Below are positions 17,927 through 45,109 of a stretch of 45,109 nucleotides of DNA, one piece after another; position 1 is the stretch's first letter; the number at the start of each line of letters is the position of its first letter. The position numbers and the translations under genes were made by a program. Under the pieces are notes generated by a model, which did not search any database, was not told the DNA's origin, and worked only from the letters and a program-made list of their open reading frames with translations. Source of the DNA: Candidatus Hydrogenedentales bacterium. Lineage in GTDB: Bacteria > Hydrogenedentota > Hydrogenedentia > Hydrogenedentales > JAEUWI01. Where the stretch lies: contig JBIKMR010000003.1 in assembly GCA_044359155.1 (NCBI GenBank), forward strand, positions 1 through 45,109, read 5' to 3'.

Positions 17927-19774
17927 TCACAAACAATCCGATTCCGGCGTTGAACGATCTGCTGCGTCTTCTGCTGCGAGCACCGCGCTGAAAACCCCTT
18001 GGGTGGAATCCTGTTTCAGAGTAGCGTCGAACCAAGCCAACAGTAGATTCATCGTCGCGGTCTGCTGGATAGCTGCGCTTACATAGGTGTTGCCGAGGCA
18101 GATGATTTGCCCGAAGTTGCAGATGGTGGAGTTCACCGCGAACTGGCAATGCGAAGCGTCGTCTATTAAAACGTAGTGCCTGCACTCGGAAGCGAGCCCG
18201 TCGTACATTTCACGGACGTTGGTGGCGGGCGGGGCCACGCAATCTTTCTCCCCGCCTATCACCAGCGCGGGAATACTGATGCCGGGCGCGGCGGCGATGG
18301 CGCTGGGGTTGGTGTCAGCTGCGGCAATCGGCACAATCGTAGAGATGTTCGCGCTGTGCTGCACGGAGAGCATGGTCGCGCCACCGCCCATGCTGTGGCC
18401 TGCCACGCCGCTGCGCGTGCCCACGCGGTTAAAAAATATCGACCCCGAATCCGCGCCCTGCAACTGCATCTGGTCCACGCTGAAGGCCAGGTCTTGCCCG
18501 AAGTTGCCGTGACTGGGGGCGGGGAGGGTGCTGGTTTCGGTGTCCACCATCACCACGATATAGCCTTGCGGCACAAGGCCGTTCCAGATGTAGTTGTAGA
18601 AGCTGATACCTATCGAGAATCCATGACCGAACACGACGACCGGAAAGCGGTTGGCATCGTTGCCCGCTATGGGCTGGTTGCTTCCTGCCGTGGTGGCGGG
18701 ATAATAAATCGTAGTGGGTATGCTGCGGTTCGAGCGGCTCGCGTCCACAAAGGTGCGCGTGGTGGAACCCACAGCGAAGGGACCGGGCACGGGCTCCAGC
18801 CCGCCCTCCCCTTCGGTGATACCCTCGGTCGCGCCCTCACCTTCTAATGCACCTTCTCCCTCGATGGCTCCTTCGCCATCGGCCACACCTTCTCCATCTA
18901 CACTCCCTTCGCCTTCGACTACACCTTCTATAATTCCTTCAACGATTCCCTCGGCCACTCCCTCCCCTTCACCCTCGGCTAAACCTTCGATCACCCCCTC
19001 AGATATTCCCTCGAGTACTCCCTCTCCCGCGCCTTCAGATGTTCCCTCAACAATCCCCTCCAACAAGCCTTCGACGACACCTTCCACCTGCCCCTCAACC
19101 ACGCCCTCAATGCTTCCCTCGGTAGTGCCCTCAATAACTCCCTCCAACGTCCCCTCTTGCTCTCCCTCGATTGCACCTTCAACCACTCCTTCCCCAGCTC
19201 CCTCGATGCTCCCTTCCGCAACACCCTCTGTTATACCTTCACCGTCTATTGCACCCTCTCCCTCAAGCAAGCCTTCCGTTACTCCCTCGACACCGCCTTC
19301 TGCTATTCCTTCAACTATTCCCTCGCCCTCGAACATGCCTTCAACCACACCCTCACCTTCACCCTCCTCCTCCGCCTCGGGCAGGCAATCATCCAGCGAC
19401 CCTGACAGCGGGCGGAATCCATCTTCCGAGCCGCTGCAATCCACGGCGTAGGCACCCGCGTTGAAGAACTGAATCAGCCGCAGCACTTCTCCCAGCGAGA
19501 ACCTGCCATCGGCGGGAGAATAATCGCCATCGTGGTAGTTGCCCACGCACAGTGTACCGCCCGCAGTAAAGCCATCTTCCCCCTCACCGCTGCATTCATA
19601 CCCGCCCACGTTGTAGAACTGGATAAGCCGCAGCAATTCCGTGAGGGTAATCTCACCAAACGGCGGTGTGTAATCCGCGCTGTGCGGTTCGGCGCTGGCA
19701 GGCAGTGCCGACACGATGGACGTAAGAAATAGTATCAGCGTCAGCGCAACGCGCCGAATGGCTTGGTCCTGCAT
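17927..19774 (-). CDS. Secreted modular hydrolase: HSAD double-EF-hand-like module, Glu-Gly linker, chlorophyllase/cutinase-like alpha/beta hydrolase
   Basis: Signal peptide from ATG 19774 (GGGGAG SD). Contains PHSADY...LTELLRLIQFYN twice, FGHGF, GHSMGGG, D.VAP and HCQF. Confidence 0.8.
   Translation of the reverse strand: MQDQAIRRVALTLILFLTSIVSALPASAEPHSADYTPPFGEITLTELLRLIQFYNVGGYECSGEGEDGFTAGGTLCVGNYHDGDYSPADGRFSLGEVLRLIQFFNAGAYAVDCSGSEDGFRPLSGSLDDCLPEAEEEGEGEGVVEGMFEGEGIVEGIAEGGVEGVTEGLLEGEGAIDGEGITEGVAEGSIEGAGEGVVEGAIEGEQEGTLEGVIEGTTEGSIEGVVEGQVEGVVEGLLEGIVEGTSEGAGEGVLEGISEGVIEGLAEGEGEGVAEGIVEGIIEGVVEGEGSVDGEGVADGEGAIEGEGALEGEGATEGITEGEGGLEPVPGPFAVGSTTRTFVDASRSNRSIPTTIYYPATTAGSNQPIAGNDANRFPVVVFGHGFSIGISFYNYIWNGLVPQGYIVVMVDTETSTLPAPSHGNFGQDLAFSVDQMQLQGADSGSIFFNRVGTRSGVAGHSMGGGATMLSVQHSANISTIVPIAAADTNPSAIAAAPGISIPALVIGGEKDCVAPPATNVREMYDGLASECRHYVLIDDASHCQFAVNSTICNFGQIICLGNTYVSAAIQQTATMNLLLAWFDATLKQDSTQGVFSAVLAAEDAADRSTPESDCL
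18801..19379 (-). repeat. Low-complexity (EGxx)n coding repeat, about 190 aa
   Basis: Tetrapeptide (12-bp) periodicity EGEG/EGVV/EGIT/EGSI with diversified synonymous codons. Confidence 0.9.
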
Positions 19775-19914
19775 GTCGAGACTCCCCTGATTGCCCAGAG
19801 CGCAGTATACGCCGAAACTCGAAAAAGTGTGAGGGGGCATGAAGGGGGAAAGGGAGGAAGCGGGAGCTTCCTACGCATGGGCATTTCCAAGGAGACCCTG
19901 GAAACGAGGGGGGT

Positions 19915-22868: not shown

Positions 22869-22878
22869 GGTCACGGGG

Positions 22879-27027: not shown

Positions 27028-27053
27028 GTACTTTCGTATGTTATTGATAATGC

Positions 27054-27082
27054 TTGACTTACGAATTTTCTTGTGCTATATT
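27054..27082 (+). promoter_or_regulatory. Rightward sigma70 promoter for the Met/Cys-rich gene
   Basis: TTGACT-N17-TATATT with an extended -10 TG. Confidence 0.75.
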
Positions 27083-27197
27083 CCGCTCACCTTACCGAAG
27101 GCACCAGCCACTCTGGCTTACCTATACACACCAATGCTGACGCAACGTCGACGCGGAGATCCCATCGGGGAATCCCTCGAACACTGGGAGACCTCTA

Positions 27198-27668
27198 ATG
27201 AAGACTATGATGATGGAAGGCAATATGATGGGGATGGCGCCGATGGGTATGGGCGGCATGGGGATGGGCGCACCGATGATGAGCGCCCCCGCGGGCATGA
27301 ACATGATGATGATTCCGCGCTGCACGATGATGATGGAGAAGTGCGACGGCGGCATGAAAATGATGTGCACCTGTACGGACGCCACGGCCTGCTCCATGAT
27401 GCAGAACCTGTGCAGCATGATGGCCGGTGGCATGATGAGCTGCTGCATGATGATGAACGGCATGGTGATGATGAACTGCAACATGACCATGGGCATGTGC
27501 AAGTGCGAGATGACCAAGGACGGCATGTGCATGACGTGGACCAGCGGCGACGCGATGTGCTGCGACATGATTCAGGCCTGCTGCGACATGATGATGAAGA
27601 TGATGGAATGCGGCTGCACCTGCTGCATGTGCATGAACGGCACGCCCGTGTGCTGCTGCTCCTGCTAA
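27198..27668 (+). CDS. Extremely Met/Cys-rich hypothetical protein (50 Met and 25 Cys in 156 aa)
   Basis: GGGAG SD, own promoter and terminator, internal two-fold repeat, GC-rich third positions. Residues counted by hand. Confidence 0.85.
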   Translation: MKTMMMEGNMMGMAPMGMGGMGMGAPMMSAPAGMNMMMIPRCTMMMEKCDGGMKMMCTCTDATACSMMQNLCSMMAGGMMSCCMMMNGMVMMNCNMTMGMCKCEMTKDGMCMTWTSGDAMCCDMIQACCDMMMKMMECGCTCCMCMNGTPVCCCSC

Positions 27669-27691
27669 TTTACCTAGCCCAATTCGATATT

Positions 27692-27724
27692 GCCCGCCCC
27701 ACCCTGGGGCGGGCTTATCTTTTT
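27692..27724 (+). terminator. Intrinsic terminator
   Basis: GCCCGCCCCA-ccc-TGGGGCGGGC followed by TTATCTTTTT. Confidence 0.8.
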
Positions 27725-27763
27725 GGGAAGAGTGTCGGCAGACGCTTCGAGAATCGCCCCCGG

Positions 27764-28363
27764 TTACTCCTCAATCACCACAGGAGGAGCCACCTTGAGT
27801 ATGCCGTGCTCTTCGAGCCCGAAGGTCCACACCTGCACGCCTTGCATGGCCATGACCTCTACCACGCCAAAGGTGAGCATGGCCGCGAAGATGCCGAACA
27901 GGAATAGCTGATAGCCCAGGCGCAGGTAACGGAATTTCTTGTGCGCAAGAAACTGGCCGCTTTGGTACATATCCCGCACGACGGCCTCGTAGGCCAGCTT
28001 GGGATCGTTACAGAGGGCCTCCATTTCCTTCACATAATCGTCGTGGTCCATGTCCGCATAGGTACCGAAAAAGAGCAGGTTGTAGTTAGAACTTTTTTTC
28101 GCCACGCGGCTGGTCGGTGGCTGGCTGGGCATAAGCACCACGATGGACGATAAGGCTGTCAGTGCGCAGAAAAGTATCGTGATGACGGCAGGCCATTGAA
28201 GCGCATGCTCATCCAGAAAGGGAATGCAAAAGGTCAGCATCAGGGAAGAGACGGTGAGCAGTATGTTGGCCTTGATGTCGGCCATGGCGTTGAGTTGCAG
28301 GTTCTGCTGGCGCGATTGGCGCAGCATCTGGTCCACATGACCTGCCGGTTCGTTAATATTCAT
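27764..28363 (-). CDS. DUF5706 / Pycsar effector-like membrane protein
   Basis: MADIKANILL, two TM helices, NLLFFG, 'KKFRYLR.GY' and a further TM. GGGGAGG SD before ATG 28363. Confidence 0.78.
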   Translation of the reverse strand: MNINEPAGHVDQMLRQSRQQNLQLNAMADIKANILLTVSSLMLTFCIPFLDEHALQWPAVITILFCALTALSSIVVLMPSQPPTSRVAKKSSNYNLLFFGTYADMDHDDYVKEMEALCNDPKLAYEAVVRDMYQSGQFLAHKKFRYLRLGYQLFLFGIFAAMLTFGVVEVMAMQGVQVWTFGLEEHGILKVAPPVVIEE

Positions 28364-28478
28364 GAGCCCCTCCCCTTCCATACGAACTCCGATGATAGCA
28401 GCCGCCAAGGCCTGAATGGCAAGGGCTTGGCCGGGGGCGTTAGAATGCCCGTCTGAAATCGCCACAAGGAGCTACCCC

Positions 28479-32806: not shown

Positions 32807-34024
32807 TTATACTAATCCCAGCTCCTGCCACCGGTTCTTCCATTCCTGTGCCCAAGTGAAAACGTCACACGCGGGCATGGGCTTGGCGATGTAATACCCT
32901 TGCCCGTAGTTGCACTTGCGCGAGCGCAAGAAGTTCCAGTCCGTTTCGTCTTCAATGCCCTCGGCCACAACGGTCATGCCCAGTTGCGCGGCCATATAAA
33001 GGTTACCCTCCACAATGGCCCCTTGGGTGGCGTTGCTTGTAGCGCCGTGAACAAAGCTGCGATCGATCTTCAGCTCGGTAAAGGGCAGGTCTCGCAACTG
33101 GGCCAGCGAGGAATGCCCGGTTCCGAAGTCATCTATGGAAAGCGAAATACGCTTGAGGCGCAATCGCGCTAGTATGTCGAGTTGCCGGGTCATGTCCTGC
33201 GTCAGGCGTGATTCGGTAATCTCGAGCACCAGGGCCTCCGGCGGAACGTTGAGACGGTTCAGGTGCTCCTGCACCACGTTGGGAAACTCGAGACGATTCA
33301 GGTTCTCCATCGAAATGTTCACCGCAACGCTTATGTCGAGCCCTTCGCTGATCCAGGTTTGGTATTGCTCGATGGCCTGCACAAGAACAACCGTGGTTAA
33401 TTCTTCAATGAGGCCATGCTCCTCGGCGGAAGCAATGAATTGATCGGGAAACACTAGCCCATCTTCCGGGTGCTGCCAGCGCACCAAGGCTTCTACGCCA
33501 TAGAACGTTGCATCGTCGAGGCGCACCTTCGGCTGGTAATAATTCACGGTTTCATTCCGTGCCAGCGCCTGCCGAATCTCCTCCGCGCCGTATACCTTGA
33601 GAGGACCCTTAGTCCGTCTCGATAGATGGGTCCGCCAGTGATCAATGACCGCGTCGAGCGCGTCATTTTTGACCGGCTTGTTGAGAAACCCAACCACGTC
33701 GAGCTGATGCGCAGAAGCCAGTCTCGCCACGGTGTCTATCACGCGTGCATCTTCACCGCTCACCAGTGCCAATGCCCCGGCATATTTCGTTTCCACCAAC
33801 TTGCGCACAAACTCGACTCCGTCCATCTCGGGCATGTTCAGGTCGAGAAAGAGTAGCGGGTAGTCTCCGCCGTGGCAGGTGATGTGGGCCAGCGCGTCAG
33901 CGCCAATGATAAAGCTCTGCACCTCGGACAAACCATGGCGGGAGAGCTGCCGCGTGAAGAGGGCAATTTGAAAGGGGTCGTCGTCAACGATAAATACGTT
34001 GGGCTCTTCGGTTGTATTCTGCAC
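32807..34024 (-). CDS. REC-EAL response regulator (c-di-GMP phosphodiesterase)
   Basis: VDDD, DLNMPEMDG, YQP, EALVRW, EITES, DDFGTGHSS, AEGIE and QGY. Confidence 0.92.
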   Translation of the reverse strand: MQNTTEEPNVFIVDDDPFQIALFTRQLSRHGLSEVQSFIIGADALAHITCHGGDYPLLFLDLNMPEMDGVEFVRKLVETKYAGALALVSGEDARVIDTVARLASAHQLDVVGFLNKPVKNDALDAVIDHWRTHLSRRTKGPLKVYGAEEIRQALARNETVNYYQPKVRLDDATFYGVEALVRWQHPEDGLVFPDQFIASAEEHGLIEELTTVVLVQAIEQYQTWISEGLDISVAVNISMENLNRLEFPNVVQEHLNRLNVPPEALVLEITESRLTQDMTRQLDILARLRLKRISLSIDDFGTGHSSLAQLRDLPFTELKIDRSFVHGATSNATQGAIVEGNLYMAAQLGMTVVAEGIEDETDWNFLRSRKCNYGQGYYIAKPMPACDVFTWAQEWKNRWQELGLV

Positions 34025-37000
34025 TTAGTGTTTCTCCTTTGACTCGGCAACGGCATTGATGACCTCCACCATGCGCTTTTCAAGGTCCGACAGTAACAAT
34101 TCTATTTCCCTGCGGTCGCCGTGCAGTCCGTATGTTTCAATCTGCTGGTAGCACGCGCCCAGTGCGGCGGCGCCAATCGACTTCGCGGCAGACTTGATCC
34201 GGTGGGCAATGGCCGCCGTCCCCTTGCAGTTGCCTGCTGCAAGGGCTGAGCGGATCTCAAGGTTGCCCGTTTGGGCAGACTGCAAAAAGGAGGATAAGAA
34301 TTCTTCGACGACGTCGGCGTCCGTGCCCACCATGTCTTGAAGTACACGCACGTCGAGAACCGGCGTGGCATCTTTCTTCGGTTCTTCAGCTTCAGCCCTT
34401 GAAACTTCTTGGGTTTCGGGTGGGTTCGTCCATTTTTTTAGTATGCCCTTCAAGTCGGCAACGGCGGCGGGCTTCCTAAGGAAGTCGTTCACGCCCGCCT
34501 CCACGCAACGTTGACGCTCCGCTTCCGTCAAGCCTGACGCAAGCATGATAATGGGCGTGTTGCTGCCTTCCTCCATCCCTCGAATCACCTTGGCCAGCTC
34601 TTTTCCCGTCACTTCGGGCAGGTGCATATCGGTGATCACTACGTCTACAACGTCCCGATTCTTTGCATACAGCTCCTGCGCTTCCTTGGCATAGGCCGTA
34701 GTAATGACCTTATAGCCTTCCGATTCGATGACGCGCGCGACCAGCTCCCGGAATATCTCGTCATCCTCCACAAGCAATATCGTGTTGACTTTCTTGGGCG
34801 CTGGAGCGGCAACTTTTTCTTCTGGCGGGGGCGATTGCCTGGGGGGCTCGACGACTGCGGCTTGGCCCGCCTCGGTGATATTGTCTGGGCTGGACAAGAT
34901 ATCCCGGAGTTTGGTCAACAAGGCTTCGGAGGTGTAGGGCTTGGGTATGAAATGGTTGACGCCCGCCCCGAAGGCCTTGGCATAATTCCCATTCGCAGCC
35001 AATCCGCTGGACCCGATGATGCGCACGTTCGGGTCTACTGCCCTGAGCTCAGTTATCATGCTGGGCCCATCCATTACGGGCATACTCATGTCTGTCAGGA
35101 TTACGGCAATCTCTTTGCGGTGCGCCAGGAACTGCGACAGGCCCTCGCCGCCATGGCTTGCCAGCATTACGCGATACCCATAGCGTTCCAGCGCCCTGCG
35201 CGTTATATCGAGAATGCTCTCCTCATCGTCCACGACAAGTATCAGCTCGCCATTTCCTCGCGGCAACTGCGATTGCGTGATGGAGACGTCTTTCGTGAAT
35301 TCCAAACTGGTCAGGGCCACCCAATAGATCTCGAACTTCGTCCCCTTGCCCGGCTCACTGTATAACTTGATGAATCCGCCATTGTCGCGAATAATCGAAA
35401 ACGTGGTCGAAAGCCCGAGTCCGGTTCCCTTGCCGATATCCTTGGTGGTGAAGAAGGGCTCGAATACTTTCTCCTGAATCTCCTTCGACATGCCGCAACC
35501 CGTGTCTTCCACTTCCAATACGACATAGGGACCGGGCTTTCCTTGCGCATTCATTTGGGACAACGACTCGTCAGCAAACAGGTTCGAGAGGGTTATCGAC
35601 AGCTTGCCGCCGCTGGGCATGGCGTCCCGCGCGTTTACATAGAGATTCATCAACACCTGGTGGAGTTGCGTCGGGTCGGCATTCACGCTCCAGAGGTCGT
35701 CTGCTGCCTCGAATGAGAACACGATGTTTCGCGGAAAGGTGTCTTGCGCAATCTTCTGCACTTCCCGGGCGATATGCACCGGGTTGACCTGGATGCGTTT
35801 CCCCTCGACCCCCCGCGCGAATCCCAGCACCTGCCGAATCAAAGCCGCTCCACGCTCGGCGCTGCGCTTCAGTGTGTCCAGGGTCGCCATCCCATCGACA
35901 GTATGTACATCGTCCTTCAGCACCTCGGCTGCCATGAGGATCGGCGCGAGGATATTGTTTAGGTCATGCGCAATGCCCCCGGCCAGGGTGCCAATGCTTT
36001 CCATGCGCTGTGAACGGAGAAACTGTTGTTCCAGTTTCTTTCGCTCGGTCACGTCGGTGTAGATCGCAAGGATCGACTTGGGCTTCCCTTGGTTGTCGCG
36101 CAGCAAGGTACATCGGGCAAGCACGGTAACGGTCTTTCCCTGCTTGGTGAGGTGCTGCATCTCGCCGGACCAGTCGCCTGATTCCAGTGTTTTTTCCGTA
36201 CACGCCGGCTGGGGCTCAGGTTCCCCGTAGAGGAAGTCCGCAACGGACTTGCCCAATATCTCGTCACCGCTCCATCCGTATACCGCCTCTGCGCCACGGT
36301 TCCAATATAGAACCCGGCCATCCAAATCGCGCACCATGATGGCGTCGCTCGCCTCATCCAGCAGGGCGGCCTGCTCGGCCAGGTGCATCTCTACTTCTTT
36401 GCGTTCCGTCATATTGCGCACGAGCGCAATGTCGTAGCCACGCCCTTCCCACTCGAAGTAGTTTGCATTGACCTCAACGGGAAACACGCGATGATCCTTG
36501 CGGCGGCACATGGATTCGAAGTTGCTCGAACCATTCTTGATAATAAATTCCCAGTGGTCTTGCCACTGAGATTCGGTAAACTCGGGGTCGATGTCGAAGA
36601 CGCGCATGGTGAGCAGTTCTTCGCGGCTGTAGCCCAGCGAGCGGCACGCGCCCTCGTTCACGTGCAGAAACCGCGCATTGGAATCGATCAGGTACATGGC
36701 CTCATGCAGGTGGTCTTGCGCGAACTCGAGCATGGCAAGTCTCTCTTCGCTGCGCTTGCGCTCACTGATGTCACGAAAAGAGACAACCGCCCCGGCTAAT
36801 CTGCCGGTCTCATCTTTCACCGGAGAACAGGTGTACTCCACCGGGAAGCTGCTTCCGTCCTTACGAAAGAACACCTCTTCGTTCACCATCCGTGTTTTGC
36901 CGTCTTGCAGGGTCCGATGTAACGGGCATTCTTCTATCGGGTTTTTGCTGCCATCGGCGCGGTGGTGATGAATCAGCTCATGGGCTTTTTGCCCCAACAT

Positions 37001-37681
37001 CTCCCCCTCGCTCCAGCCAAAGAGCGCAACGCCGGCGGCATTCTCAAACAGGATGCGCCCATCGAGATCGATGCGGTGGACCCCCTCGGCGATCGATCCC
37101 AGGATGAGGCGCAACTCCTCCTTCGTTTCGGACAATAGGGATTCCCTGGCGCTTAGTTGAATCTCGGCCAGCTTTCGGTCGGTGATGTTGATGTGCATCA
37201 CCACGGCGCTCGCGCGTTCTTCCTGATCGAGCGGCGTGGCTACGAGCCGGAACCAGCGTTGTTCCCCGGGCGAATGGCAGGGGTATTCCAGCGCGAAATG
37301 GGGGGCCGACTTGTCGAGCACAGAACGAATGCCCGCCGCTGCGGCAGAGGCTTCCTCGGAATATTCCCCCTTGGCGCCGTCGCATATATGGAGGTAGTTG
37401 TCGCCCATGCAGGAATCGGGATCATCAAGCGCATTGGCAGAGCCAAACTGCTCCCACGCTTCGTTTACGTTCATGATGACGCCATCCGGGTCGAGCAACG
37501 CAATCTGTGTAGGCACGGCATTGAGCATGGCTGCGCCCTGTTCCGCTCGCCGCGTCTTGGCAGCATTCATTTGATCGAGAGGTATCATCCCTGCAGCCGC
37601 ATGGGATTCCAGCGCGTCGTCCAGATGAACGTCATGTTCCGACGCCGCGCCATCCTGTTGTGCTTTTTCCCCTGACTTCAT
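34025..37681 (-). CDS. Hybrid sensor histidine kinase (4 PAS, HisKA, HATPase, 2 REC, Hpt)
   Basis: Four PAS/PAC repeats, GIAHDLNNIL, NLYVNARDAM, D.G.G, GTGLGL, two receiver domains and AHRIKSAA.SIGA. Confidence 0.92.
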   Translation of the reverse strand: MKSGEKAQQDGAASEHDVHLDDALESHAAAGMIPLDQMNAAKTRRAEQGAAMLNAVPTQIALLDPDGVIMNVNEAWEQFGSANALDDPDSCMGDNYLHICDGAKGEYSEEASAAAAGIRSVLDKSAPHFALEYPCHSPGEQRWFRLVATPLDQEERASAVVMHINITDRKLAEIQLSARESLLSETKEELRLILGSIAEGVHRIDLDGRILFENAAGVALFGWSEGEMLGQKAHELIHHHRADGSKNPIEECPLHRTLQDGKTRMVNEEVFFRKDGSSFPVEYTCSPVKDETGRLAGAVVSFRDISERKRSEERLAMLEFAQDHLHEAMYLIDSNARFLHVNEGACRSLGYSREELLTMRVFDIDPEFTESQWQDHWEFIIKNGSSNFESMCRRKDHRVFPVEVNANYFEWEGRGYDIALVRNMTERKEVEMHLAEQAALLDEASDAIMVRDLDGRVLYWNRGAEAVYGWSGDEILGKSVADFLYGEPEPQPACTEKTLESGDWSGEMQHLTKQGKTVTVLARCTLLRDNQGKPKSILAIYTDVTERKKLEQQFLRSQRMESIGTLAGGIAHDLNNILAPILMAAEVLKDDVHTVDGMATLDTLKRSAERGAALIRQVLGFARGVEGKRIQVNPVHIAREVQKIAQDTFPRNIVFSFEAADDLWSVNADPTQLHQVLMNLYVNARDAMPSGGKLSITLSNLFADESLSQMNAQGKPGPYVVLEVEDTGCGMSKEIQEKVFEPFFTTKDIGKGTGLGLSTTFSIIRDNGGFIKLYSEPGKGTKFEIYWVALTSLEFTKDVSITQSQLPRGNGELILVVDDEESILDITRRALERYGYRVMLASHGGEGLSQFLAHRKEIAVILTDMSMPVMDGPSMITELRAVDPNVRIIGSSGLAANGNYAKAFGAGVNHFIPKPYTSEALLTKLRDILSSPDNITEAGQAAVVEPPRQSPPPEEKVAAPAPKKVNTILLVEDDEIFRELVARVIESEGYKVITTAYAKEAQELYAKNRDVVDVVITDMHLPEVTGKELAKVIRGMEEGSNTPIIMLASGLTEAERQRCVEAGVNDFLRKPAAVADLKGILKKWTNPPETQEVSRAEAEEPKKDATPVLDVRVLQDMVGTDADVVEEFLSSFLQSAQTGNLEIRSALAAGNCKGTAAIAHRIKSAAKSIGAAALGACYQQIETYGLHGDRREIELLLSDLEKRMVEVINAVAESKEKH

Positions 37682-38007: not shown

Positions 38008-38526
38008 ATGTTCTGGCAACGGGTTATCACGGCATCACTTACCATTGCCCTGCTGCTTGCGGGCCCTGTACCGTGGGTGATTGCCGCCGCCATGCCTGCC
38101 GATACCAACGGCGACAATCAGGTGGACGTGCTGGACCTGCAACGCGCCATTGCCGCGCTGATGTCCCCCAACGCCAAGGCCCAACTGGCAGATGTAAACA
38201 ACGACGGCGCAGTCGATATCCTCGACGTGCAGCGCATCCTCAGCCAGACCAGCGAAACTTCGGCTCCCGTTCCTCCAGAGCAAGAACACCCTGCCCCCAC
38301 GGCCGTGCCGATACTCGGCACGCCACAGCCCATGCTGGCGAACCTGAACGAGCTTCGCCTTGCGCTGGCGCTGCCGCCACAGCCCTTACTCGCTCGCCCC
38401 CTTCCGGTGGACACGGATACCGTGCCGCCTCCCTCCGAGTATCGACTCACCTGTGGACTCTCGCCGCACGGTCCGCCAAGTCTGCAAGCGGAGCAACCAC
38501 GCCTTCACGCGGCACAAGCCGCCTGA
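38008..38526 (+). CDS. Small secreted dockerin-domain protein with Pro-rich tail (HGPP motif)
   Basis: Signal peptide; duplicated Ca-loop/helix ADTNGDNQVDVLDLQ and ADVNNDGAVDILDVQ. Confidence 0.8.
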   Translation: MFWQRVITASLTIALLLAGPVPWVIAAAMPADTNGDNQVDVLDLQRAIAALMSPNAKAQLADVNNDGAVDILDVQRILSQTSETSAPVPPEQEHPAPTAVPILGTPQPMLANLNELRLALALPPQPLLARPLPVDTDTVPPPSEYRLTCGLSPHGPPSLQAEQPRLHAAQAA

Positions 38527-38778
38527 AGGTATCCCCTTCGGCTGTATGATTACGGCATTGCCGCGTGTCCTGGGCAGGACACGCACAGGGCCATGCCGCA
38601 GGCAGGGGCAGCCAAGGGAACCGTTGCTTCGCACGCCACACGGCGCGCTTCCTGGGCGGGAACCGCGCCGCAACTCCGGTGAGAATAATTAGGGAAAAGT
38701 CGAATAACTTAGAGACATGCAAAACGCAGTGCGGCCCCGGGTGAAAACGCCTGGGGCGGATACTGAAGGACAGTGACC

Positions 38779-40074
38779 ATGAATACGATAGAGACACGGA
38801 TAAGGCTGCGGCCAGGGGTGTGGCTCGCCGCCGTGTGTTTTGCCTTGGCCTGTGGACCACCGGGCCATGCGCAACCTGAAGGGCTCTACGGCGACGTGAA
38901 CCGTGACGGCAGCATCGACATCCTTGATGTGCAAGGCACGGTGAACATGGCGCTTGGCGCAGCCACGTCCAACCCTGAAGCGGACGTGGACCTGAGCGCC
39001 GCCGTGGACGTGCTCGACGTGCAGAACATCACCAACACCGTGCTCGGCACGGGCGGGCTGGTGCAGCGGGTAGAGGGCAGCGTTGCCCTGCCCGAAGGCA
39101 GCAGCGCGCTCAAGGCCGTGGCGGTATCGGAAGATGGCCGCGTCGTCGAGACCAACGCAGACAGTGCAACCGGGGAATTCACCCTGGCCCTGCCCGTGCG
39201 CACCGCGTGGAGCCTTGCCTTCCTGGCAGGCGTTCCCGGCGCGGAAGGCTCGGTCGGGTCCGTGGTGTTCCCCATTGAATCCGGCGCCTCGGTGTCGCTG
39301 CCGCTGCCGAACCTTTCGCGCGGCAACACCCTCGACCTCGGGGCCGTCAACCTTGCGCCCGGCTCCGCCATTGGCGAAGACGTGCGCGACCTGCTGGCGG
39401 AAACCGCCGACCCGATTACGTTCGTGGACCTCAACGGCAACGGCGCGCCGGATGTCGTGGAAGAATGGCTGATACCGCTGCCCTTGGGCGATGCCGCCAT
39501 CCTCGGCTTGAGCGTGGACGACGAGGACGTGATCGAGTTGCTGGCGGTGCTGGCGGACTGTGCAGAGAGCCAGGGGCTGGAAGACTATGCCCCCAACCTG
39601 GGCGAGTACAGCAATGGCATTCCCATTGCCGTGCAGCCGCTGCTCGAATGCGTACCGCCGGTGCTTGAAGAATGGATTCGTGGCGAGGTGGATATCCAAT
39701 CCTGGATGGAACCCCTGCTCGATTCCATCGTGGCGAAGATCAGCCAGGAGATTGAGGAAGAGATCGAGGACTGGTTCGACGAGACGGAAATCCCCGAACT
39801 GGCCGATGGCAACAACAACGAGGTGCCCGACTTCATCGAGCCTGAGTTGTGTGTGGCTGCCGCGCCCGTGCCCGGGGTGGACCCCTCGTGCGTGCTGGAC
39901 GCCAATGGCGACGGTCTCCCCGATTTCAGTGCGGACGACAACGAGAACGGGACGGCCAACATCCTGGACCCCGAGTCGGCCCCCGACGACGCCGATGGCG
40001 ATGGCGTGCCTGACGCCATCGACATCGACGACGACAACGACGGCTTGCCTGACTACGCAGAAACGCAGGGGTAA
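38779..40074 (+). CDS. Secreted dockerin-domain protein with acidic Ca-binding (TSP3-like) repeats
   Basis: Signal peptide; GDVNRDGSIDILDVQ / ADVDLSAAVDVLDVQ; D.NGDG.PD and DADGDGVPDAIDIDDDNDGLPD repeats. Confidence 0.82.
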   Translation: MNTIETRIRLRPGVWLAAVCFALACGPPGHAQPEGLYGDVNRDGSIDILDVQGTVNMALGAATSNPEADVDLSAAVDVLDVQNITNTVLGTGGLVQRVEGSVALPEGSSALKAVAVSEDGRVVETNADSATGEFTLALPVRTAWSLAFLAGVPGAEGSVGSVVFPIESGASVSLPLPNLSRGNTLDLGAVNLAPGSAIGEDVRDLLAETADPITFVDLNGNGAPDVVEEWLIPLPLGDAAILGLSVDDEDVIELLAVLADCAESQGLEDYAPNLGEYSNGIPIAVQPLLECVPPVLEEWIRGEVDIQSWMEPLLDSIVAKISQEIEEEIEDWFDETEIPELADGNNNEVPDFIEPELCVAAAPVPGVDPSCVLDANGDGLPDFSADDNENGTANILDPESAPDDADGDGVPDAIDIDDDNDGLPDYAETQG

Positions 40075-40083
40075 GCAGAAGAC

Positions 40084-40884
40084 ATGAACACCACCCGGCG
40101 CATAGCGAGCACGCTTCTATCCCACTTGTTGGGATGGGCGTGTCTCGTCGCGCCGGGTGGTGCGGCCTTTGCCGCATCGCTCACGTTGGGCAGCGCGGTT
40201 ACCCAGCCCAGCCAGGACTTCAGCCTGCCGCTGGTGCTGACCCACTCCGAGGCCGAACCGGTCGCCGCCATCCAGTGCGACGTGACCTTCGACCCCAGCC
40301 GCTTCACGCTGACGGGCGCAACCGCCACCCAGTTACTCACCGACGCGGACAAGCAGCTAAAAACTTCTGAACTCAGTGCCGGGCGCTGGCGCATTGTGGC
40401 CTTTGGTTTTAACCAGAACATCATCCCCGCCGGGCAGGTGGCCAGCATCCTGTTCACCACCACAGCCGGGGCACCTGCGGGCGAGAATCTTATCCCCATC
40501 GAGAGCCCGATTCTCAGCAACACCAACGGCCAGCCGATACCCGTGACCACCAACCCCGCCACGGTGACAATTGGCCAGCCGAGTTTCCATAGCGCAGACA
40601 CCAACCAGAACCTCGTCATTGATCTGAACGAGCTTCTGCGTGGCATACAACTTTTTAACGCGGGCGAATACTTCTGCCAGCCCGGCAGCGAAGATGGCTA
40701 TGGCCTGTTCTCAGGAACGCGTGATTGCACGCCGCACAGCAGCGACTACAAGAACGGCGCGGACTGGCGTATCAACCTGACGGAGTTGTTGCGCCTCATC
40801 CAGTTCTTCAACCTGCGCGGCTACGTGCCCAGCAGTACCACCGAAGACGGCTTCGACCCGGCGGTTCCCAAACATGGGAACTAA
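40084..40884 (+). CDS. Secreted cohesin-domain protein with C-terminal HSAD module
   Basis: 'LPLVL...VAAIQCDVTFDPSRF...IPAGQVASILF...LSNTNG' cohesin pattern, then FHSADTNQ..IDLNELLRGIQLFN and HSSDY...INLTELLRLIQFFN. Confidence 0.75.
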   Translation: MNTTRRIASTLLSHLLGWACLVAPGGAAFAASLTLGSAVTQPSQDFSLPLVLTHSEAEPVAAIQCDVTFDPSRFTLTGATATQLLTDADKQLKTSELSAGRWRIVAFGFNQNIIPAGQVASILFTTTAGAPAGENLIPIESPILSNTNGQPIPVTTNPATVTIGQPSFHSADTNQNLVIDLNELLRGIQLFNAGEYFCQPGSEDGYGLFSGTRDCTPHSSDYKNGADWRINLTELLRLIQFFNLRGYVPSSTTEDGFDPAVPKHGN

Positions 40885-42121
40885 CGCCCGAAAAATATCC
40901 CGCCGCTTCGGGGCTTTCCTCCGCCTCGCAGCATTACTAATACTCCTCCTGTCAACCCCGCTTGCCCATGCGGCGCAGCTTACCTTGGGCGCGCCGCGTA
41001 TTGGGGCGAATGGATGGGAAGCGCCGCTCACGCTTATGCCCGGTTCGGGTGAGAACGTGGCCAGTATGCAGTTCGACTTGCTGGTGCCGCCGGGCATTAC
41101 CAATGCCGCATCGGCACAGGCTTCTCAAGCCGCCGCGCTGGCAGGCAAGCAGGCCATCTATTCCGTGGTGGGACCCGGGCAAGTGCGCGTGGTGATTGCC
41201 GGGCTGAACCAGTCCGCCCTGCAAGGGGGCGAAGTGGCCACGCTCTACCTTGGCCCAGCGGCCGAAGGGCAGGCCGCCCCAAGTGCATGGCTGGCCTCCC
41301 CCGTGCTGGCATCGCCGGCGGGTGAACGCGTGCCGGTGGAAACCGACAACCCCACCACCGAGGGCGAGGAGGACGACGAAGGCGAAGTAGCGGAAGACCC
41401 GGACGATGATCCTGACACCACGCCTGAGGGGGAAGCGGACCCCATTGACGATGACGACCCCAAGAGCACCGAGGGCGAAGCCACCGACGACGAGGGAAGT
41501 GGCGGAGGTGGCTCGCTGAATCCCTACTACCCCGGCGGCATGGGGGGAGGAGGCGGAGATTTCTCCAACGATGGCACTGCAAAGGCGAAGGCCAAAAAGA
41601 AGGCCAGCGCCGCCCGAACGAAGACTGCCGCCAACACCGCCGCTGCGGCCAAAGGTGCGAAGCCCGGTGGCAACCTGAATCCGCAGGCCGCACCGTACCG
41701 AGACCCCGGCGCGCCCAGCAAGGGCAAACCAGCGGCCCCGCCCGGTGGGCAATTTGGGCCGATACCTTTTGGCAAGGGAGCAACGGCAAGTGACTCCGCT
41801 ACGGAGGCCACACTGCCAACAGAAGTAGCGGCCTCCGAAGACTTCTCCACACAATTGGCTCAGCGTTCTGGCAGCAGCACATCGAATGGCGCAGCCCCCC
41901 CCCCGATTTCCACCGGGGGAGGAGGGGGGTTAGCCAATCCGCCAACTTTGATTTTGCTTCGGCAGGTATCCGGCCTTGGTTGGTGGGGCGGCCTTCTAGC
42001 CGTCCTGCTCGCCGCGTTGGCATTTTCCCTGATTATCAATCTCCTTCTTCGCGGGGAGGAACACTTCTTCCAAAAGGCCGTGAAGAAGATGAAAAAGCGC
42101 TCGCGTTCCAAGCAGCCCTAA
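40874..42121 (+). CDS. Cohesin-domain protein with acidic/low-complexity stalk and C-terminal TM anchor
   Basis: Signal peptide; 'VASMQFDL...AGKQ...VRVVIAGLNQ..L.GGEVATL...LASPAG'; a TM followed by KKMKKRSRSK. Confidence 0.72.
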   Translation: MGTNARKISRRFGAFLRLAALLILLLSTPLAHAAQLTLGAPRIGANGWEAPLTLMPGSGENVASMQFDLLVPPGITNAASAQASQAAALAGKQAIYSVVGPGQVRVVIAGLNQSALQGGEVATLYLGPAAEGQAAPSAWLASPVLASPAGERVPVETDNPTTEGEEDDEGEVAEDPDDDPDTTPEGEADPIDDDDPKSTEGEATDDEGSGGGGSLNPYYPGGMGGGGGDFSNDGTAKAKAKKKASAARTKTAANTAAAAKGAKPGGNLNPQAAPYRDPGAPSKGKPAAPPGGQFGPIPFGKGATASDSATEATLPTEVAASEDFSTQLAQRSGSSTSNGAAPPPISTGGGGGLANPPTLILLRQVSGLGWWGGLLAVLLAALAFSLIINLLLRGEEHFFQKAVKKMKKRSRSKQP

Positions 42122-42249
42122 ACTTCCGACGATCTGGACTACGTCCGCTTGCTGCCACTCTCAGGATTTTCCTGTTTTTAATTACGGAGTGGAGGCTGCT
42201 TAGTTGCCAATTGGAAATTAGGCGTTCTTACTTGAGCTTGAAACCCGGC

Positions 42250-42328: not shown

Positions 42329-45109
42329 GTGGGCAACACATTACGTATTATCATGGCGGGCGCGGCATTTTTGCTGGCGGGGGCCATGGCTCAGGCGGCG
42401 GAGATTCCCGTAACCAGCACGGCGGACAGCGGCGGGGGCTCACTGCGCGACGCCATCTTTGCGGCGAACCTCACTACGGGCGATGACATCATCGTGATTG
42501 AGCTGGCGGCGGGTTCGATCATTTCCGTGGATAGCGACCTGCCCGCGATATCGCGTCCCTTGCGGATTGAGGCGGACAACCCGCGCATCCAGTTGCAGCC
42601 CAGCCTTGTCAGCAGTGCATCGCGCGGGTTGCAGGCGAACAGTTCAACGGGGTCAGTAGAGTTTGTGGGGCTGGACATCAGCGGCTTCCCGGTGGGCGTG
42701 GTGGTGGCAGAAGGCATCATTGGCATGTACAGCACGGTGGTGCGAGACAATGACGGCGACGGTGTGCAGGTGAACAACGGGGTGTCCGGGGTCATTGGCA
42801 ACGAGGTGGACGGCTCTGAGGGCTGCTACATATATGGCAATGGGGGAGTGGGTATTCGGCTGGGCGCGGGCGGCAAGATGCCGAACGTGACCGTGCGCAA
42901 CAACCGCATTGGCGTGGGTCCGCTGGGCGAGGTGGACGGCAACTCGGGCGCGGGTCTGCTGGTGACCGGAACCGAGGCGGACGTGGAATTCTATATCTTG
43001 CGCAACCTGATTGCGGGCAATGGTGGCGCGGGTATTTCGGTGGAGAACGCGGAAGCGGGCTTCCTGATTGTGGGCGGCAACACCATTGGCCTTGGCGCGG
43101 ACAACGCGCCCGCAGGCAACCTTGGCGGCGGCATCAGCATCACCAACACGAGCACGCTGCTGGTGGGCGCAGCGGGCGGCGAATTGCCGGGGCGCGAACC
43201 GAATACCATTTCCAGCAACTTGACGTTCGGCGTGCAATTGACAGTGGAGTCAACCGGTTGCAGCATTAGCCGCAACGACATCGTTAGCACCGATGGCCCT
43301 GGCGTTCTGCTCACGGGCGGCGCTTTTGAAAACGTGGTGGTGAACAACACGCTCACCTCGAATACGGGTGCAGGCATTGAGGTTGCTGCAGCGGATTGCA
43401 TTGGCAACAACTTCACCGCGAATGAGTTTCGCCTGAACGGCGACCTGGTGGTGCTGGCGGAGGACGCACATGGCGGCCAGTTTCCCCCGGGAGTGAACGC
43501 GCTGTTTGACCGGCTTGAAGTTGCGGGGGCGCAGGGAGGCCAGTCTTTTGAATGGTATGCAGACGATGGCTCGGGCGAAGTGCTGCCCGCAGGCACAGGC
43601 ATATCGCAGCTATTCCTAGAAGACCTGAGCAGCCTTTACGGGCAGACCATCCGTGTGGCGGTGACGGATATCGACGATGGCACATCGGAACTGTCCGATG
43701 CTTACGAGATTCAACCCCCTGCCACGGTGACCGAGGACAGTTGCCCGGCGGGCGTGGCTTATGACGATGACGACGCTACGACCAGCGTGCAGCTTCCGGT
43801 AGAGGCGGAGGTCGGCGGCTTTGTGATGTTGTTCGAGCCACCTTCCGCGCCGTTCCACGTGCAGCAGGTCTGCCTAAAATTGCAGGCCGCTGGCACGGGC
43901 CCGCTGTTGGGGGCCGTGGCGTTTTACCAGAACCAAGGCGGCACGCCGGGCGCGCTGATTACGCGGGTACCCTTTGGGCTGCAATTGACGGAAGACCTCA
44001 CGTATTACAGCATCGACGTTACCGATCCGCGCATCAGCATCGAGTCGAGCAGCGTGTTCATTGGTTTGCTCTATAACAAAGACGCCGCGCCGAACGTGGC
44101 GCTGGCGGCAGACGCGGGCGAGGGCGTGACGGCGCGCCCCCTGTTCCGCCAGTTGACCAGCAACGGAGCGTGGGATTCCTTTGGAAGTGTGCCACTGGAG
44201 TTTGACGTGATCGGCGTGCGCGCATCGGGCGAAGAGACGGGCTGTAACGCGGGCATCGCGTTTGATGATGGCACCTTCGAGGGAAGCTTTGGACCTACGA
44301 GTGTCATCGCCGGGTTTGGGCTGGCTGCCACGCCGCCCTCGTATCCTTATGAATTCAGCGGCATGTGTATGCGCCTGTTTGCCAGCGATCGTCGGGCCAC
44401 GTTCAACGCCACGCTGAACGTGTATGGCTACGACCAAGGCACACTTGGCTCGCTGTTGTTGAGCACCCCTCTGGAAGCAGTGCCCCTAACCACATCACCC
44501 AGCTGGTTTTACTTTGCCCTTCCCAGCGGGGTCACCATTACCGAGAATCAGGCCTTCTTTGAAGTTGAATGGACACTCACTCAACCTGGCGTGGTCAACG
44601 AGGTGATGGGGTATGACGCGAACCCAGCCACACCGTTGCAGGATGCCTTTGCAAAGGCGGCGATTGATGGTTCTTTCGTTGCCATGAACCTGGTCGTCCC
44701 CGGTTCTCCATCGGTGCCCGCGTTCCGTTCGTTTGGGTGGCGCATTGATGGCGCTCCCGCAGGCGAGGGGGAAGGTACCGTGGACGGAGAGGGATCGATT
44801 GACGGAGAGGGCAGTGTGGATGGTGAGGGGAACATCGACGGCGAAGGCGACCCCACGGAAGGCGAGGGAGAAGGCGAAGGCGCAGTTGGTGTCCCCCACT
44901 CTGCTGACCCCGACGGCAATTTCATTATCGACTTGTCGGAAGTGTTGCGCGTGGTGCAGTTGTACAACGCGGACGGCTTCGGCTGCGATGCGGGCGAGGA
45001 AGACGGTTTCAGCACAAACCCCGCCGACCGCACCTGCGCGCCGCACAATGCAGACTACGATACTCAGGATTGGTTGTTGAGTCTGAGCGAGATGCTGCGC
45101 ATTGTGCAG
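42329..45109 (+). CDS. Large secreted protein (3'-truncated): CSLREA-like cap, parallel beta-helix, two tandem beta modules, EG linker, HSAD module
   Basis: Absent from the ORF track because no stop falls in the window. GGGGAG SD and GTG; MGNTLRIIMAGAAFLLAGAMAQA|AEIPVTSTADSGGGSLRDAI...; GN..G repeats. Frame +2 is still in register at GEGEG...PHSADPDGNFIIDLSEVLRVVQLYN. Confidence 0.85.
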   Translation, partial: MGNTLRIIMAGAAFLLAGAMAQAAEIPVTSTADSGGGSLRDAIFAANLTTGDDIIVIELAAGSIISVDSDLPAISRPLRIEADNPRIQLQPSLVSSASRGLQANSSTGSVEFVGLDISGFPVGVVVAEGIIGMYSTVVRDNDGDGVQVNNGVSGVIGNEVDGSEGCYIYGNGGVGIRLGAGGKMPNVTVRNNRIGVGPLGEVDGNSGAGLLVTGTEADVEFYILRNLIAGNGGAGISVENAEAGFLIVGGNTIGLGADNAPAGNLGGGISITNTSTLLVGAAGGELPGREPNTISSNLTFGVQLTVESTGCSISRNDIVSTDGPGVLLTGGAFENVVVNNTLTSNTGAGIEVAAADCIGNNFTANEFRLNGDLVVLAEDAHGGQFPPGVNALFDRLEVAGAQGGQSFEWYADDGSGEVLPAGTGISQLFLEDLSSLYGQTIRVAVTDIDDGTSELSDAYEIQPPATVTEDSCPAGVAYDDDDATTSVQLPVEAEVGGFVMLFEPPSAPFHVQQVCLKLQAAGTGPLLGAVAFYQNQGGTPGALITRVPFGLQLTEDLTYYSIDVTDPRISIESSSVFIGLLYNKDAAPNVALAADAGEGVTARPLFRQLTSNGAWDSFGSVPLEFDVIGVRASGEETGCNAGIAFDDGTFEGSFGPTSVIAGFGLAATPPSYPYEFSGMCMRLFASDRRATFNATLNVYGYDQGTLGSLLLSTPLEAVPLTTSPSWFYFALPSGVTITENQAFFEVEWTLTQPGVVNEVMGYDANPATPLQDAFAKAAIDGSFVAMNLVVPGSPSVPAFRSFGWRIDGAPAGEGEGTVDGEGSIDGEGSVDGEGNIDGEGDPTEGEGEGEGAVGVPHSADPDGNFIIDLSEVLRVVQLYNADGFGCDAGEEDGFSTNPADRTCAPHNADYDTQDWLLSLSEMLRIVQ

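Follow-up and report, generated by a model that had tools for sequence, protein, structure and literature searches.

Studies of cohesin-dockerin assembly have dealt almost exclusively with Gram-positive degraders of cellulose, and the locus described here raises the question of what such modules are doing, in a conserved operon, in an uncultured freshwater phylum of diderm bacteria. The locus lies on contig JBIKMR010000003.1 of a Candidatus Hydrogenedentales bacterium (phylum Hydrogenedentota; assembly GCA_044359155.1), of which the first 45,109 nucleotides, the whole stretch of DNA that was analysed, are referred to as the window. Four forward-strand open reading frames (ORFs) between positions 38008 and 42121, which we give the working names A, B, C and D, encode secreted proteins built around cohesin and dockerin modules. 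An earlier reading of the sequence alone, the original prediction, had taken them for a non-cellulolytic cohesin-dockerin assembly cluster with a membrane-anchored scaffoldin, and had given C a second module, called HSAD. We find that A, B, C and D are conserved as an operon among relatives, and that HSAD is not private to C: it is a genome-wide module carried by 81 ORFs, which changes the probable purpose of the cluster. The four genes are laid out as follows.

38008..38526, forward strand: gene A; signal peptide, classical dockerin with two F-hand loops (about 38098-38238) and a proline-rich tail of about 90 residues.

38779..40074, forward strand: gene B; signal peptide, dockerin (about 38887-39045), beta-rich domain, helical cysteine-bearing domain and acidic, TSP3-like calcium-binding repeats at the C-terminus.

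40084..40884, forward strand: gene C; signal peptide, cohesin (about 40180-40572), a link of about 5 residues and HSAD (40585-40881).

40874..42121, forward strand: gene D; signal peptide, cohesin-family domain (about 40973-41353), a stalk that is acidic and then rich in Gly, Ala, Pro and Ser (41354-41983), a membrane helix (41984-42049) and a basic tail.

The N-termini of all four products are basic and then hydrophobic, in the manner of signal peptides, and the four consecutive secreted proteins that had been predicted are borne out as co-directional genes. The tight coupling of B, C and D was confirmed as well. Read from the sequence, the TAA of B ends at 40074 and the ATG of C follows at 40084 after 9 nucleotides (nt), and the ATG of D at 40874 precedes the end of the C stop codon at 40884, an overlap of 11 nt. 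A and B are spaced by about 250 nt. The ATG of A at 38008 stands behind a GAGGGA motif resembling a Shine-Dalgarno sequence, with a TTG at 37996 as an alternative start, and for B a GTG at 38773 is an alternative. One further element lies just past D.

42162..42174, forward strand: terminator-like hairpin with a T-run, 41 nt past the stop codon of D.

This hairpin might conceivably mark the end of the operon. In a scan of the region for promoters and terminators, counts were no higher than in shuffled sequence (four terminator-like sites against a shuffle mean of 5.0). In a metatranscriptome run from fresh water, two short contigs are identical to the locus, at 38456-38618 and 39793-39990; as contigs of an RNA library they do not prove transcription, and the stretches left uncovered carry no information.

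A search with the D protein gave matches in 36 of 41 genomes, the present one (G000) included. Around the best matches, 20 regions were taken and scanned with our own hidden Markov models (HMMs) and a dockerin-loop pattern; these regions were selected by a D-like match and are not a random sample. In nine of them, from nine genomes of families f1, f8, f10 and f13, the same order was found: a small dockerin protein, a dockerin protein of about 430-520 residues, a cohesin-HSAD protein of about 265 residues and a cohesin-stalk protein of about 400-500 residues (regions L049, L051, L054, L056, L060, L061, L063, L064 and L065, in genomes G001, G036, G021, G030, G005, G037, G039, G033 and G026). Because the order recurs in nine genomes of four families, we consider A-B-C-D an operon and not a chance neighbourhood, and the synteny that the original prediction led one to look for is present in these nine of the 20 loci. 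A third small cohesin gene often comes next after the D-type gene in the operon loci, and in L061 the long D-like gene lies elsewhere in the same genome (L062). Seven of the 20 regions hold another type of cluster, with three tandem cohesin genes and neither HSAD nor dockerin, and the other four are of mixed type or truncated at the end of a contig. Where HSAD matches are scarce or absent (genomes G035, G029, G018 and others), a D-like protein is found alone.

The best-conserved member of the operon is B, with 34-48% identity over about 400 residues at nine loci. In genome G015 (L122, contig C181), one reverse-strand frame of 954 residues (5247-2386) runs from a dockerin through a B-like body and TSP3 repeats into a cohesin, a stalk and a transmembrane (TM) helix, and this fusion points to a functional tie between B and D. 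The same genome has only one HSAD match.

The cohesin and dockerin modules on which the original prediction was built are real, although they differ in how readily standard profiles recognise them: against the Pfam families Cohesin (PF00963) and Dockerin_1 (PF00404), A and C score over the cut-off, B lies on either side of it depending on the search, and D has no match. For C, where the cut-off is 24.1, the cohesin match scores 32.6 bits, or 34.6 when the genome is scanned, and residues 33-163 cover profile positions 3-139 of 139. The AlphaFold model of full-length C, made with 19 orthologues, has a predicted local distance difference test score (pLDDT) of 85.9, rising to 94-98 over residues 31-160. 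Compared with the PDB by Foldseek, the model has its best match in 6kgf_C (E 3.3e-14; template-modelling score 0.82-0.85; root-mean-square deviation (rmsd) 2.0-2.4 Å over about 142-144 columns); all matches listed are cohesins, and 291 matches fall at E ≤ 0.001. As modelled, then, the N-terminal domain of C has the nine-stranded jelly-roll fold of cohesins, the fold that the original prediction had expected of the beta domains. A search for longer fused forms of the C cohesin (467-2000 residues) gave none at E ≤ 0.001, a result that carries little weight. Its HSAD scores 157.7 bits against the HSAD HMM and is of a C-specific subtype that lacks the last cysteine pair.

D matches no Pfam family at E ≤ 1. 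Residues 31-162 align with the C cohesin by BLASTP (33% over 134 residues, E 7e-13), the D and C families align by hhalign (99.8%, E 2.3e-28, 142 columns), and two of 15 members of the D family match Pfam Cohesin, the best at 2e-6. The D-family profile, which is diluted by full-length stalk sequences, has no match among PDB sequences at E ≤ 0.01. On this homology we accept the N-terminal domain of D as a divergent cohesin. A quick tree of 64 cohesin domains supported 13 of 61 branches and did not cleanly separate the C, D and third types, and it was not used further.

Beyond its signal peptide, D consists of a domain of about 127 residues, 55 acidic residues (25 of them Asp or Glu), 155 residues rich in Gly, Ala, Pro and Ser, a hydrophobic helix of 22 residues and a tail of 23 residues with nine Lys or Arg. 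This layout, which had been described for D, is shared by seven database homologues and by the orthologues in relatives, while the sequence of the stalk is variable. Two database proteins have overall identities of 84% and 82% to D, whose last ~90 residues (the stretch before the TM helix, the helix and the tail) differ from theirs. Over the C-terminal part of D (41617-42121), a lake run that is not a source of this DNA has broken contigs and many differences. The stalk and anchor of D appear to vary between strains. The non-clostridial, diderm setting that had been foreseen holds: the organism belongs to Hydrogenedentota, and a diderm envelope is supported because the window has a Porin_O_P porin gene and the genome seven secretin matches. 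A C-terminal helix with a basic cytoplasmic tail in a diderm would place D in the inner membrane, and the cohesin of D would thus begin in the periplasm. The proposal of assembly at the envelope or surface is in this way upheld only in part, with the membrane anchor of D speaking for the envelope and display at the surface remaining an assumption; likewise, the membrane anchor of the supposed scaffoldin stands, but the term scaffoldin needs qualifying, as each cohesin protein of the operon has a single cohesin.

The dockerin of A scores 34.3 bits against the Dockerin_1 cut-off of 22.9 (36.7 bits in the genome scan), and its translation shows two F-hand loops, each having Asp at position 12. 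Orthologues of A in L049, L051, L057 and L061 have one F-hand loop only, a half dockerin, ahead of the proline-rich tail. B scores 18.6 bits by hmmscan, below the cut-off, and 23.3 bits, above it, in a six-frame search of the genome. Among 10 orthologues of B, eight have a Dockerin_1 match at E ≤ 0.01 (best 9.6e-6), the B family profile meets solved dockerins at E 0.0015-0.06, and both loops are conserved in the orthologue alignment; judged from these comparisons of sequence, the dockerin of B is probably real despite its hmmscan score. The acidic C-terminus of B has a sub-threshold match to TSP3_bac (E 0.067). B also meets the NCBIfam family BamM at 24 bits, where the cut-off is 315, and its family profile meets PDB 9n2d_D at E 0.016. 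Looked up in the ESM Atlas, B gave only TSP3 and dockerin leads, at scores below 0.8, and the Atlas model of B is poor (pLDDT 0.51). NCBIfam has no name for any of the four proteins. No glycoside hydrolase family of Pfam matched A, B, C or D, in agreement with the non-cellulolytic character ascribed to them.

The module that joins this operon to the rest of the genome is HSAD. Homologues of C form two sets: 12 are full-length cohesin-HSAD proteins, and the rest align solely over residues ~168-260, with N-terminal domains of unrelated kinds (Ig-like, PMP repeat, lysyl oxidase, Kelch, dockerin). HSAD is a real, independent module and a distinct family. Its ~95 residues are an internal duplication of a unit of about 49 residues, in which H-S/T-x-D is followed by a loop, a helix with the pattern L-x-E-L-L-R-x-I-Q-F/L-F/Y-N, a cysteine and lastly a hairpin that contains E-D-G-F/Y. 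Residues D9, E20, R23, Q26, D41, D58, E71, R74 and Q77 are invariant. The first loop fits the 12-residue EF-hand pattern DxD/NxD/N...I...E, with Glu at position 12 and an exiting helix, and the second loop is one or two residues longer. Conserved cysteine pairs are present, and the C orthologues are all of the subtype without the last pair. In the AlphaFold model (pLDDT 93.3, predicted template-modelling score 0.83), HSAD consists of two copies of a loop, a 13-residue helix and a hairpin. In the C orthologue of L060 (G005, contig C103, 6853-7188), HSAD is substituted at otherwise invariant positions, in helix 1 and in the first E-D-G, and this genome has six HSAD matches; the substitutions may reflect relaxed constraint.

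HSAD has no family of its own in Pfam or NCBIfam, the two collections covered by our search (InterPro and CDD lay outside it). When 23 HSAD modules were compared with Pfam, 12 matched EF-hand_6 below threshold, 10 matched EF-hand_1 and seven EF-hand_5 (best 1.2e-5), and the window's own module reached 13.5 bits against an EF-hand cut-off of 25. The HSAD profile likewise found EF-hand loops as its best matches among PDB sequences, at E 0.04-1. Dockerin_1 matched one of the 23 modules (E 0.003), hhalign against the dockerins of the operon gave 28% over 19 columns, in the first loop only, and two weak 'dockerin' matches of the genome census, on contigs C53 and C369, sit inside HSAD modules. By sequence, HSAD lies outside the dockerin family.

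In structure, dockerins are the nearest known fold, although below significance in every comparison. Foldseek found nothing significant in the PDB (best E 1.5), and about half of the matches listed were dockerin chains, rank 1 included. By VIA-align against 48,161 chains, the best match had a Z of 3.6 and an rmsd of 2.7 Å over 54 residues, and dockerins made up 11 of the 42 matches listed, again with rank 1 (2ozn_B). Among the named entries, dockerin chains are the most frequent in both lists. The nearest clusters in the ESM Atlas are unannotated proteins, mostly from Candidatus Hydrogenedentota, and the first matches from outside the family are dockerin clusters, at a score of 0.88 and template-modelling scores of 0.39-0.45, below trust levels. 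HSAD has extra hairpins and is about 95 residues long, against about 60 for a dockerin. It may be a distant structural cousin of dockerin. NCBIfam 'flexitail' (NF041520) matched one of the 23 modules, at 19.3 bits against a cut-off of 40, and nothing genome-wide at E ≤ 0.01; flexitail may, as a lead only, be a distant relative of HSAD. Papers that use the word 'flexitail' concern antibody engineering in the portions consulted, and the titles and opening lines of abstracts on Hydrogenedentes with dockerin, cohesin or EF-hand describe neither the operon nor HSAD.

An HMM built from 24 modules was searched against the 48,354 stop-to-stop ORFs of at least 50 residues in the genome (E ≤ 1e-3). HSAD was found in 81 ORFs, in 70 of them as a near-complete module. 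It stands within 25 residues of the ORF end in 71 of the 81 and is N-terminal in eight, seven of which have it starting 2-4 residues past the predicted signal cleavage site. A crude heuristic of our own recognised a start resembling a signal peptide in 54 of the 60 HSAD ORFs to which it could be applied, the other 21 being cut by contig ends. Two of the 81 lie in the window outside the operon.

42329..45109, forward strand, cut by the contig end: gene E; signal peptide, right-handed beta-helix, GE-rich linker and HSAD from about 44897.

17927..19840, reverse strand: HSAD protein outside the operon; signal peptide, HSAD right after the predicted cleavage site and a PETase-like alpha/beta hydrolase.

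In the second of these, HSAD scores 87 bits at ORF residues 63-155, and the hydrolase matches PETase (PF12740) at E 2.8e-21. Gene E matches Pfam Beta_helix at 1.7e-12 and HSAD at 88 bits, and only its HSAD part matches the loci of relatives; it is a neighbour and not a conserved member of the operon. A large HSAD protein also adjoins the operon in L051, L054 and L057, and the D-like gene in L062.

The family is large. Against 1.84 billion cluster representatives the HSAD profile has 2,913 matches at E ≤ 1e-3, 2,288 at E ≤ 1e-10 and 979 at E ≤ 1e-30. The best 149 of these representatives comprise 126 with a C-terminal, 12 with an N-terminal and 11 with an internal module; 17 contain it more than once, and five also contain a cohesin. 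Of 121 genomes sampled from the phylum, 65 have HSAD; families f1, f8, f10, f11 and f13 all have it, while most genomes of f5 and f3 lack it (five of 48 and three of 13 have it). The number of modules scored per genome was at most 41, and a first look gave up to 235 candidates (G104). Matches were further noted in a Candidatus Hydrogenedens sp. genome (116), in an Opitutaceae metagenome-assembled genome (MAG; 19, weaker) and in a Verrucomicrobiota MAG (three). A 0.6-Mb MAG labelled Paceibacterota (G124, L012) has three matches on short contigs, one at E 2.9e-40, and these look more like binning contamination from Hydrogenedentota than a true occurrence.

The proteins that carry HSAD are diverse. 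Of 40 of the 81 ORFs scanned against Pfam, 27 have a family at E ≤ 1e-5. These include proprotein-convertase P, PKD, Ig and leucine-rich repeats, lamin-tail domains and beta-helices, together with adhesin-like repeat proteins of up to 2,382 residues. Other families are endonuclease/phosphatase, BNR/sialidase-like proteins, sulfatase, glucose/sorbosone dehydrogenases and CotH, as well as M64 and M14 peptidases, a trypsin-like protease and a GDSL lipase. No glycoside hydrolase or carbohydrate-binding module (CBM) family was found in genes A to E or in the 40 scanned HSAD ORFs.

In the genome as a whole, about seven cohesin modules were found: those of C and D, those on contigs C211, C264 and C21, and two on C162. 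The proteins outside the operon are the following.

Contig C264, 10387-12081: cohesin protein.

Contig C162, 2847-5141: cohesin protein; a pair of cohesins and then HYR-like repeats, truncated where the contig ends.

Contig C21, 4625-5872: cohesin protein.

Contig C211, 1357-2526: cohesin protein.

Three of these four end in a TM helix and a basic tail, as do at least four of the cohesin proteins of the genome in total, and in the loci, by our own heuristic, 45 of 64 cohesin ORFs do. A genome-wide census of dockerins, which the original prediction had called for, counted only three classical dockerins that exceed the cut-off, namely those of A, of B and of a metalloprotease-like protein on contig C319. 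With about seven cohesins against three classical dockerins, some of the sockets would be without a known plug. In the phylum, the D-type cohesin family is nearly universal (97 of 121 genomes). Of the nine genomes with a cohesin-HSAD protein, eight have at least 22 HSAD matches, and the ninth (G005) has six. The only recurrent fusion partner of HSAD in a conserved operon is a cohesin.

How might these parts work together? We favour a reading in which A, B, C and D are one conserved operon of Hydrogenedentota for a small, non-cellulolytic cohesin-dockerin assembly in the envelope, with C linking that assembly to the site at which HSAD attaches, and we give this reading, taken as a whole, about an even chance. 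What the analysis establishes is the modules, the fold of the C cohesin, the homology of D to it, the conservation of the operon and the HSAD census with its cargo; the binding steps, the pairing of plugs with sockets, the choice between periplasm and surface, and a receptor for HSAD are what we infer. All four products would be exported through Sec. The C-terminal helix of D would anchor it in the cytoplasmic membrane, its basic tail facing the cytoplasm, and D would hold out one cohesin socket on a disordered stalk of about 210 residues. C would be a soluble cohesin socket fused to the 95-residue HSAD, and A and B would be classical calcium-binding dockerin plugs that insert into the sockets of C and D. 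HSAD, by analogy with other modular tags, would serve for attachment and gather the proteins that carry it at a single site of the envelope; C would be the adaptor that brings a cohesin socket, and hence A and B, to that site, and D would tie the whole set to the cell.

Several observations weigh against this reading. The role given to HSAD as an attachment module is itself drawn from that analogy. The dockerin of B falls below the Pfam cut-off in hmmscan, and D has neither a Pfam match nor, through its family profile, a solved structure at E ≤ 0.01. The membrane helix of D, in a diderm, means the inner membrane, and the assembly may never reach the surface. Across the 121 genomes, HSAD and the cohesin family occur together in 53, HSAD alone in 12, the cohesin family alone in 44 and neither in 12, so that the two are unrelated in their occurrence; these counts come from related genomes and carry no statistical test. 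Finally, G023 and G031, each with at least 38 HSAD matches, lack a C orthologue and have no more than a divergent, membrane-anchored protein resembling a cohesin, and HSAD proteins therefore do not need C.

The main rival, and the more interesting case, is that HSAD is itself a plug, a new class analogous to dockerin, for the membrane-anchored cohesins (D and its paralogues on C211, C264 and C21). On that view the cohesin stalks would present some 80 HSAD-bearing enzymes and adhesins in the style of a cellulosome, and the C-type HSAD would dock C onto D as a type II dockerin does. We consider this possible but rather unlikely. Its widest form is a shade more doubtful still: HSAD as a second, independently evolved cohesin plug, by which some 80 to more than 200 proteins of the exoproteome would be displayed per cell, with A-B-C-D as the adaptor and anchor core. 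That dockerins come nearest to the HSAD fold by Foldseek, VIA-align and the ESM Atlas, all below significance, is consistent with a plug, as is the logic of two repeats, each a calcium-type loop followed by a helix. The same can be said of the cohesin as sole recurrent fusion partner in the conserved operon, of the surplus of cohesins over classical dockerins in the genome, of the C-type HSADs as a conserved subtype without the last cysteine pair, and of the membrane-anchored, cohesin-like protein that HSAD-rich G023 keeps. Set against these are the short hhalign match to the dockerins of the operon (28% over 19 columns) and the single module in 23 touched by Dockerin_1 at E 0.003. Nor is there any phyletic association, given 12 genomes with HSAD and no cohesin and 44 with the reverse, and D-like proteins stand alone in HSAD-free genomes. 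About 81 plugs to a handful of single-cohesin anchors would also be a poor stoichiometry.

HSAD could also be the tag by which cargo is recognised for passage through the outer membrane, for instance on a secretin-based route, with the proteins of the operon handling or retaining that cargo. A genome may have HSAD on anything from dozens to over 100 exported proteins, for the most part at their very C-terminus, a distribution that recalls the C-terminal domain of the type IX secretion system and PEP-CTERM; the cysteine pairs and compact fold would suit transport of proteins folded in the periplasm, and the genome does have seven secretin matches. We nevertheless find this improbable. HSAD also occurs behind the signal peptide (eight of 81 ORFs; 12 of 149 representatives), internally (11 of 149) and in tandem (17 of 149), placements that make it unlike known terminal sorting signals, and in the loci examined no secretion gene is linked to the operon. 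A comparably slim chance attaches to a purely periplasmic assembly, in which D-type stalks and the TSP3-bearing B would form a calcium-dependent tether between inner membrane, wall and outer membrane, and HSAD proteins would be periplasmic. The predicted topology of D does put its cohesin in the periplasm, most cohesin ORFs of the loci share its helix and basic tail (45 of 64, by the heuristic above), the TSP3-like repeats of B match BamM, if weakly (24 against 315 bits; 9n2d_D at E 0.016), and D-like proteins occur in 97 of 121 genomes. The cargo, however, looks extracellular, with proteases, a sulfatase, a nuclease, a lipase, the PETase-like hydrolase and adhesin-like repeats of up to 2,382 residues, and a disordered stalk of some 210 residues exceeds what the periplasm usually needs. 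Hardly credible, lastly, is the view that A to D are unrelated neighbours which share common extracellular modules by chance. Cohesin- and dockerin-like modules are indeed widespread outside cellulosomes, but the same order in nine genomes of four families, the translational coupling of B, C and D and the fusion of a B-like protein with a cohesin and TM helix in G015 all speak against it.

Other features of the window and its source are given here for context. The assembly comprises 4.37 Mb in 430 contigs and is 89% complete. Among lake-water metagenomes, 23 runs hold at least half of the sampled words of this DNA, and five of the runs are possible sources. The remaining genes of note are as follows.

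495-1445, forward strand: N-terminal match to DUF1559 (SBP_bac_10), of a kind common in bacteria of the Planctomycetes-Verrucomicrobia-Chlamydiae (PVC) type.

1503-2180, reverse strand: HEPN-domain protein (E 5.3e-13).

19993-25740, reverse strand: CysA-like ABC transporter (ATPase, two permeases, binding protein), adjoining the Porin_O_P porin.

24304-25740, reverse strand: Porin_O_P gene (Pfam).

27038-27907, forward strand: ORF overlapping or adjacent to the PycTM ORF, with no Pfam match.

27764-28465, reverse strand: PycTM domain (Pycsar effector, PF18967, E 7.2e-22).

32807-37681, reverse strand, just upstream of A and divergent from it: hybrid histidine kinase and a receiver-EAL protein, not syntenic in relatives.

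The PycTM locus may be a cyclic-nucleotide defence system. The hybrid histidine kinase (34025-37681; 1,218 residues with four PAS domains, HisKA, HATPase, two receivers and Hpt) was considered as a regulator of the operon and rejected, as it is not syntenic in relatives.

HSAD marks much of the exported enzyme set of the organism, and its ligand would reveal how these bacteria organise the extracellular digestion of proteins, sulfated polymers and lipids. If HSAD does bind cohesin, a well-known socket would gain a second type of plug. The module could also give the protein-assembly toolbox a small, calcium-dependent, disulfide-stabilised tag.

Among known systems, the cellulosome is the obvious comparison, with its tiers of type I and type II cohesin-dockerin pairs in Clostridium thermocellum and Acetivibrio cellulolyticus. 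As there, sockets and calcium-binding plugs are encoded side by side, one cohesin protein (C) has a second, docking-type module, another (D) is anchored to the cell, and many enzymes share one small terminal module. Unlike there, the present system has no glycoside hydrolase or CBM among the proteins scanned and no multi-cohesin scaffoldin: each cohesin protein of the operon has one cohesin, and only three classical dockerins exceed the cut-off, so that it does not qualify as a cellulosome. D is anchored by a C-terminal membrane helix in a diderm and not by S-layer homology (SLH) domains or sortase in a monoderm, and the module shared by the enzymes is HSAD and not a dockerin.

Closer in scale are the non-cellulosomal pairs, such as NagH/NagJ of Clostridium perfringens (PDB 2ozn) and the cohesin of Archaeoglobus fulgidus (PDB 2xdh), and Peer et al. 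have reportedly reviewed cohesin- and dockerin-type modules outside cellulosomes. There, too, secreted proteins other than cellulases are joined through single cohesins and dockerins, and both 2xdh and 2ozn are among the structural matches of the C cohesin or HSAD. Those, however, are isolated pairs on enzymes and toxins, with no conserved operon in which they are combined with a membrane anchor and a third family of modules. Tags of the exoproteome, namely the C-terminal domain of the type IX secretion system, PEP-CTERM and SLH, resemble HSAD in that one small, lineage-restricted, expanded module is found on dozens to hundreds of exported proteins. HSAD differs in being a double repeat of helix plus hairpin with an EF-hand loop and cysteine pairs, with no beta-sandwich or TM signal, and in occurring also at the N-terminus, internally and in tandem, so that it is not strictly C-terminal. 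With EF-hands it shares the 12-residue pattern of its first loop, Glu at position 12 and the exiting helix, but it has no entering helix or paired EF-hand domain, its second loop is longer, and it scores below the Pfam cut-offs.

The general idea of the original prediction, a non-cellulolytic cohesin-dockerin machine in PVC-type bacteria, has already been published as a hypothesis. This is the 'planctosome', a hypothetical peptide-degrading machine of freshwater Planctomycetes built on non-cellulolytic cohesins and dockerins (Andrei et al., ISME J 2019, PMC6461901). As far as the consulted part of that paper goes, the two systems are alike in being proposed for lake bacteria of PVC-like lineage, and the lamin-tail, proprotein-convertase P, TSP3 and M14 peptidase domains of the planctosome (PMC6461901) occur also in the HSAD cargo and in B. 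In the same part of the paper, the model, itself a proposal, has classical dockerins on peptidases and a lamin-tail domain (LTD) as anchor, and it contains no HSAD, no cohesin on a membrane helix and no A-B-C-D operon (PMC6461901). What is new here, as far as our searches reach, is the conserved A-B-C-D operon in Hydrogenedentota, the single cohesins anchored by a membrane helix on long stalks in a diderm and, most importantly, HSAD as a large family, so far without a name, that labels the exported proteome and in this operon shares a protein with a cohesin.

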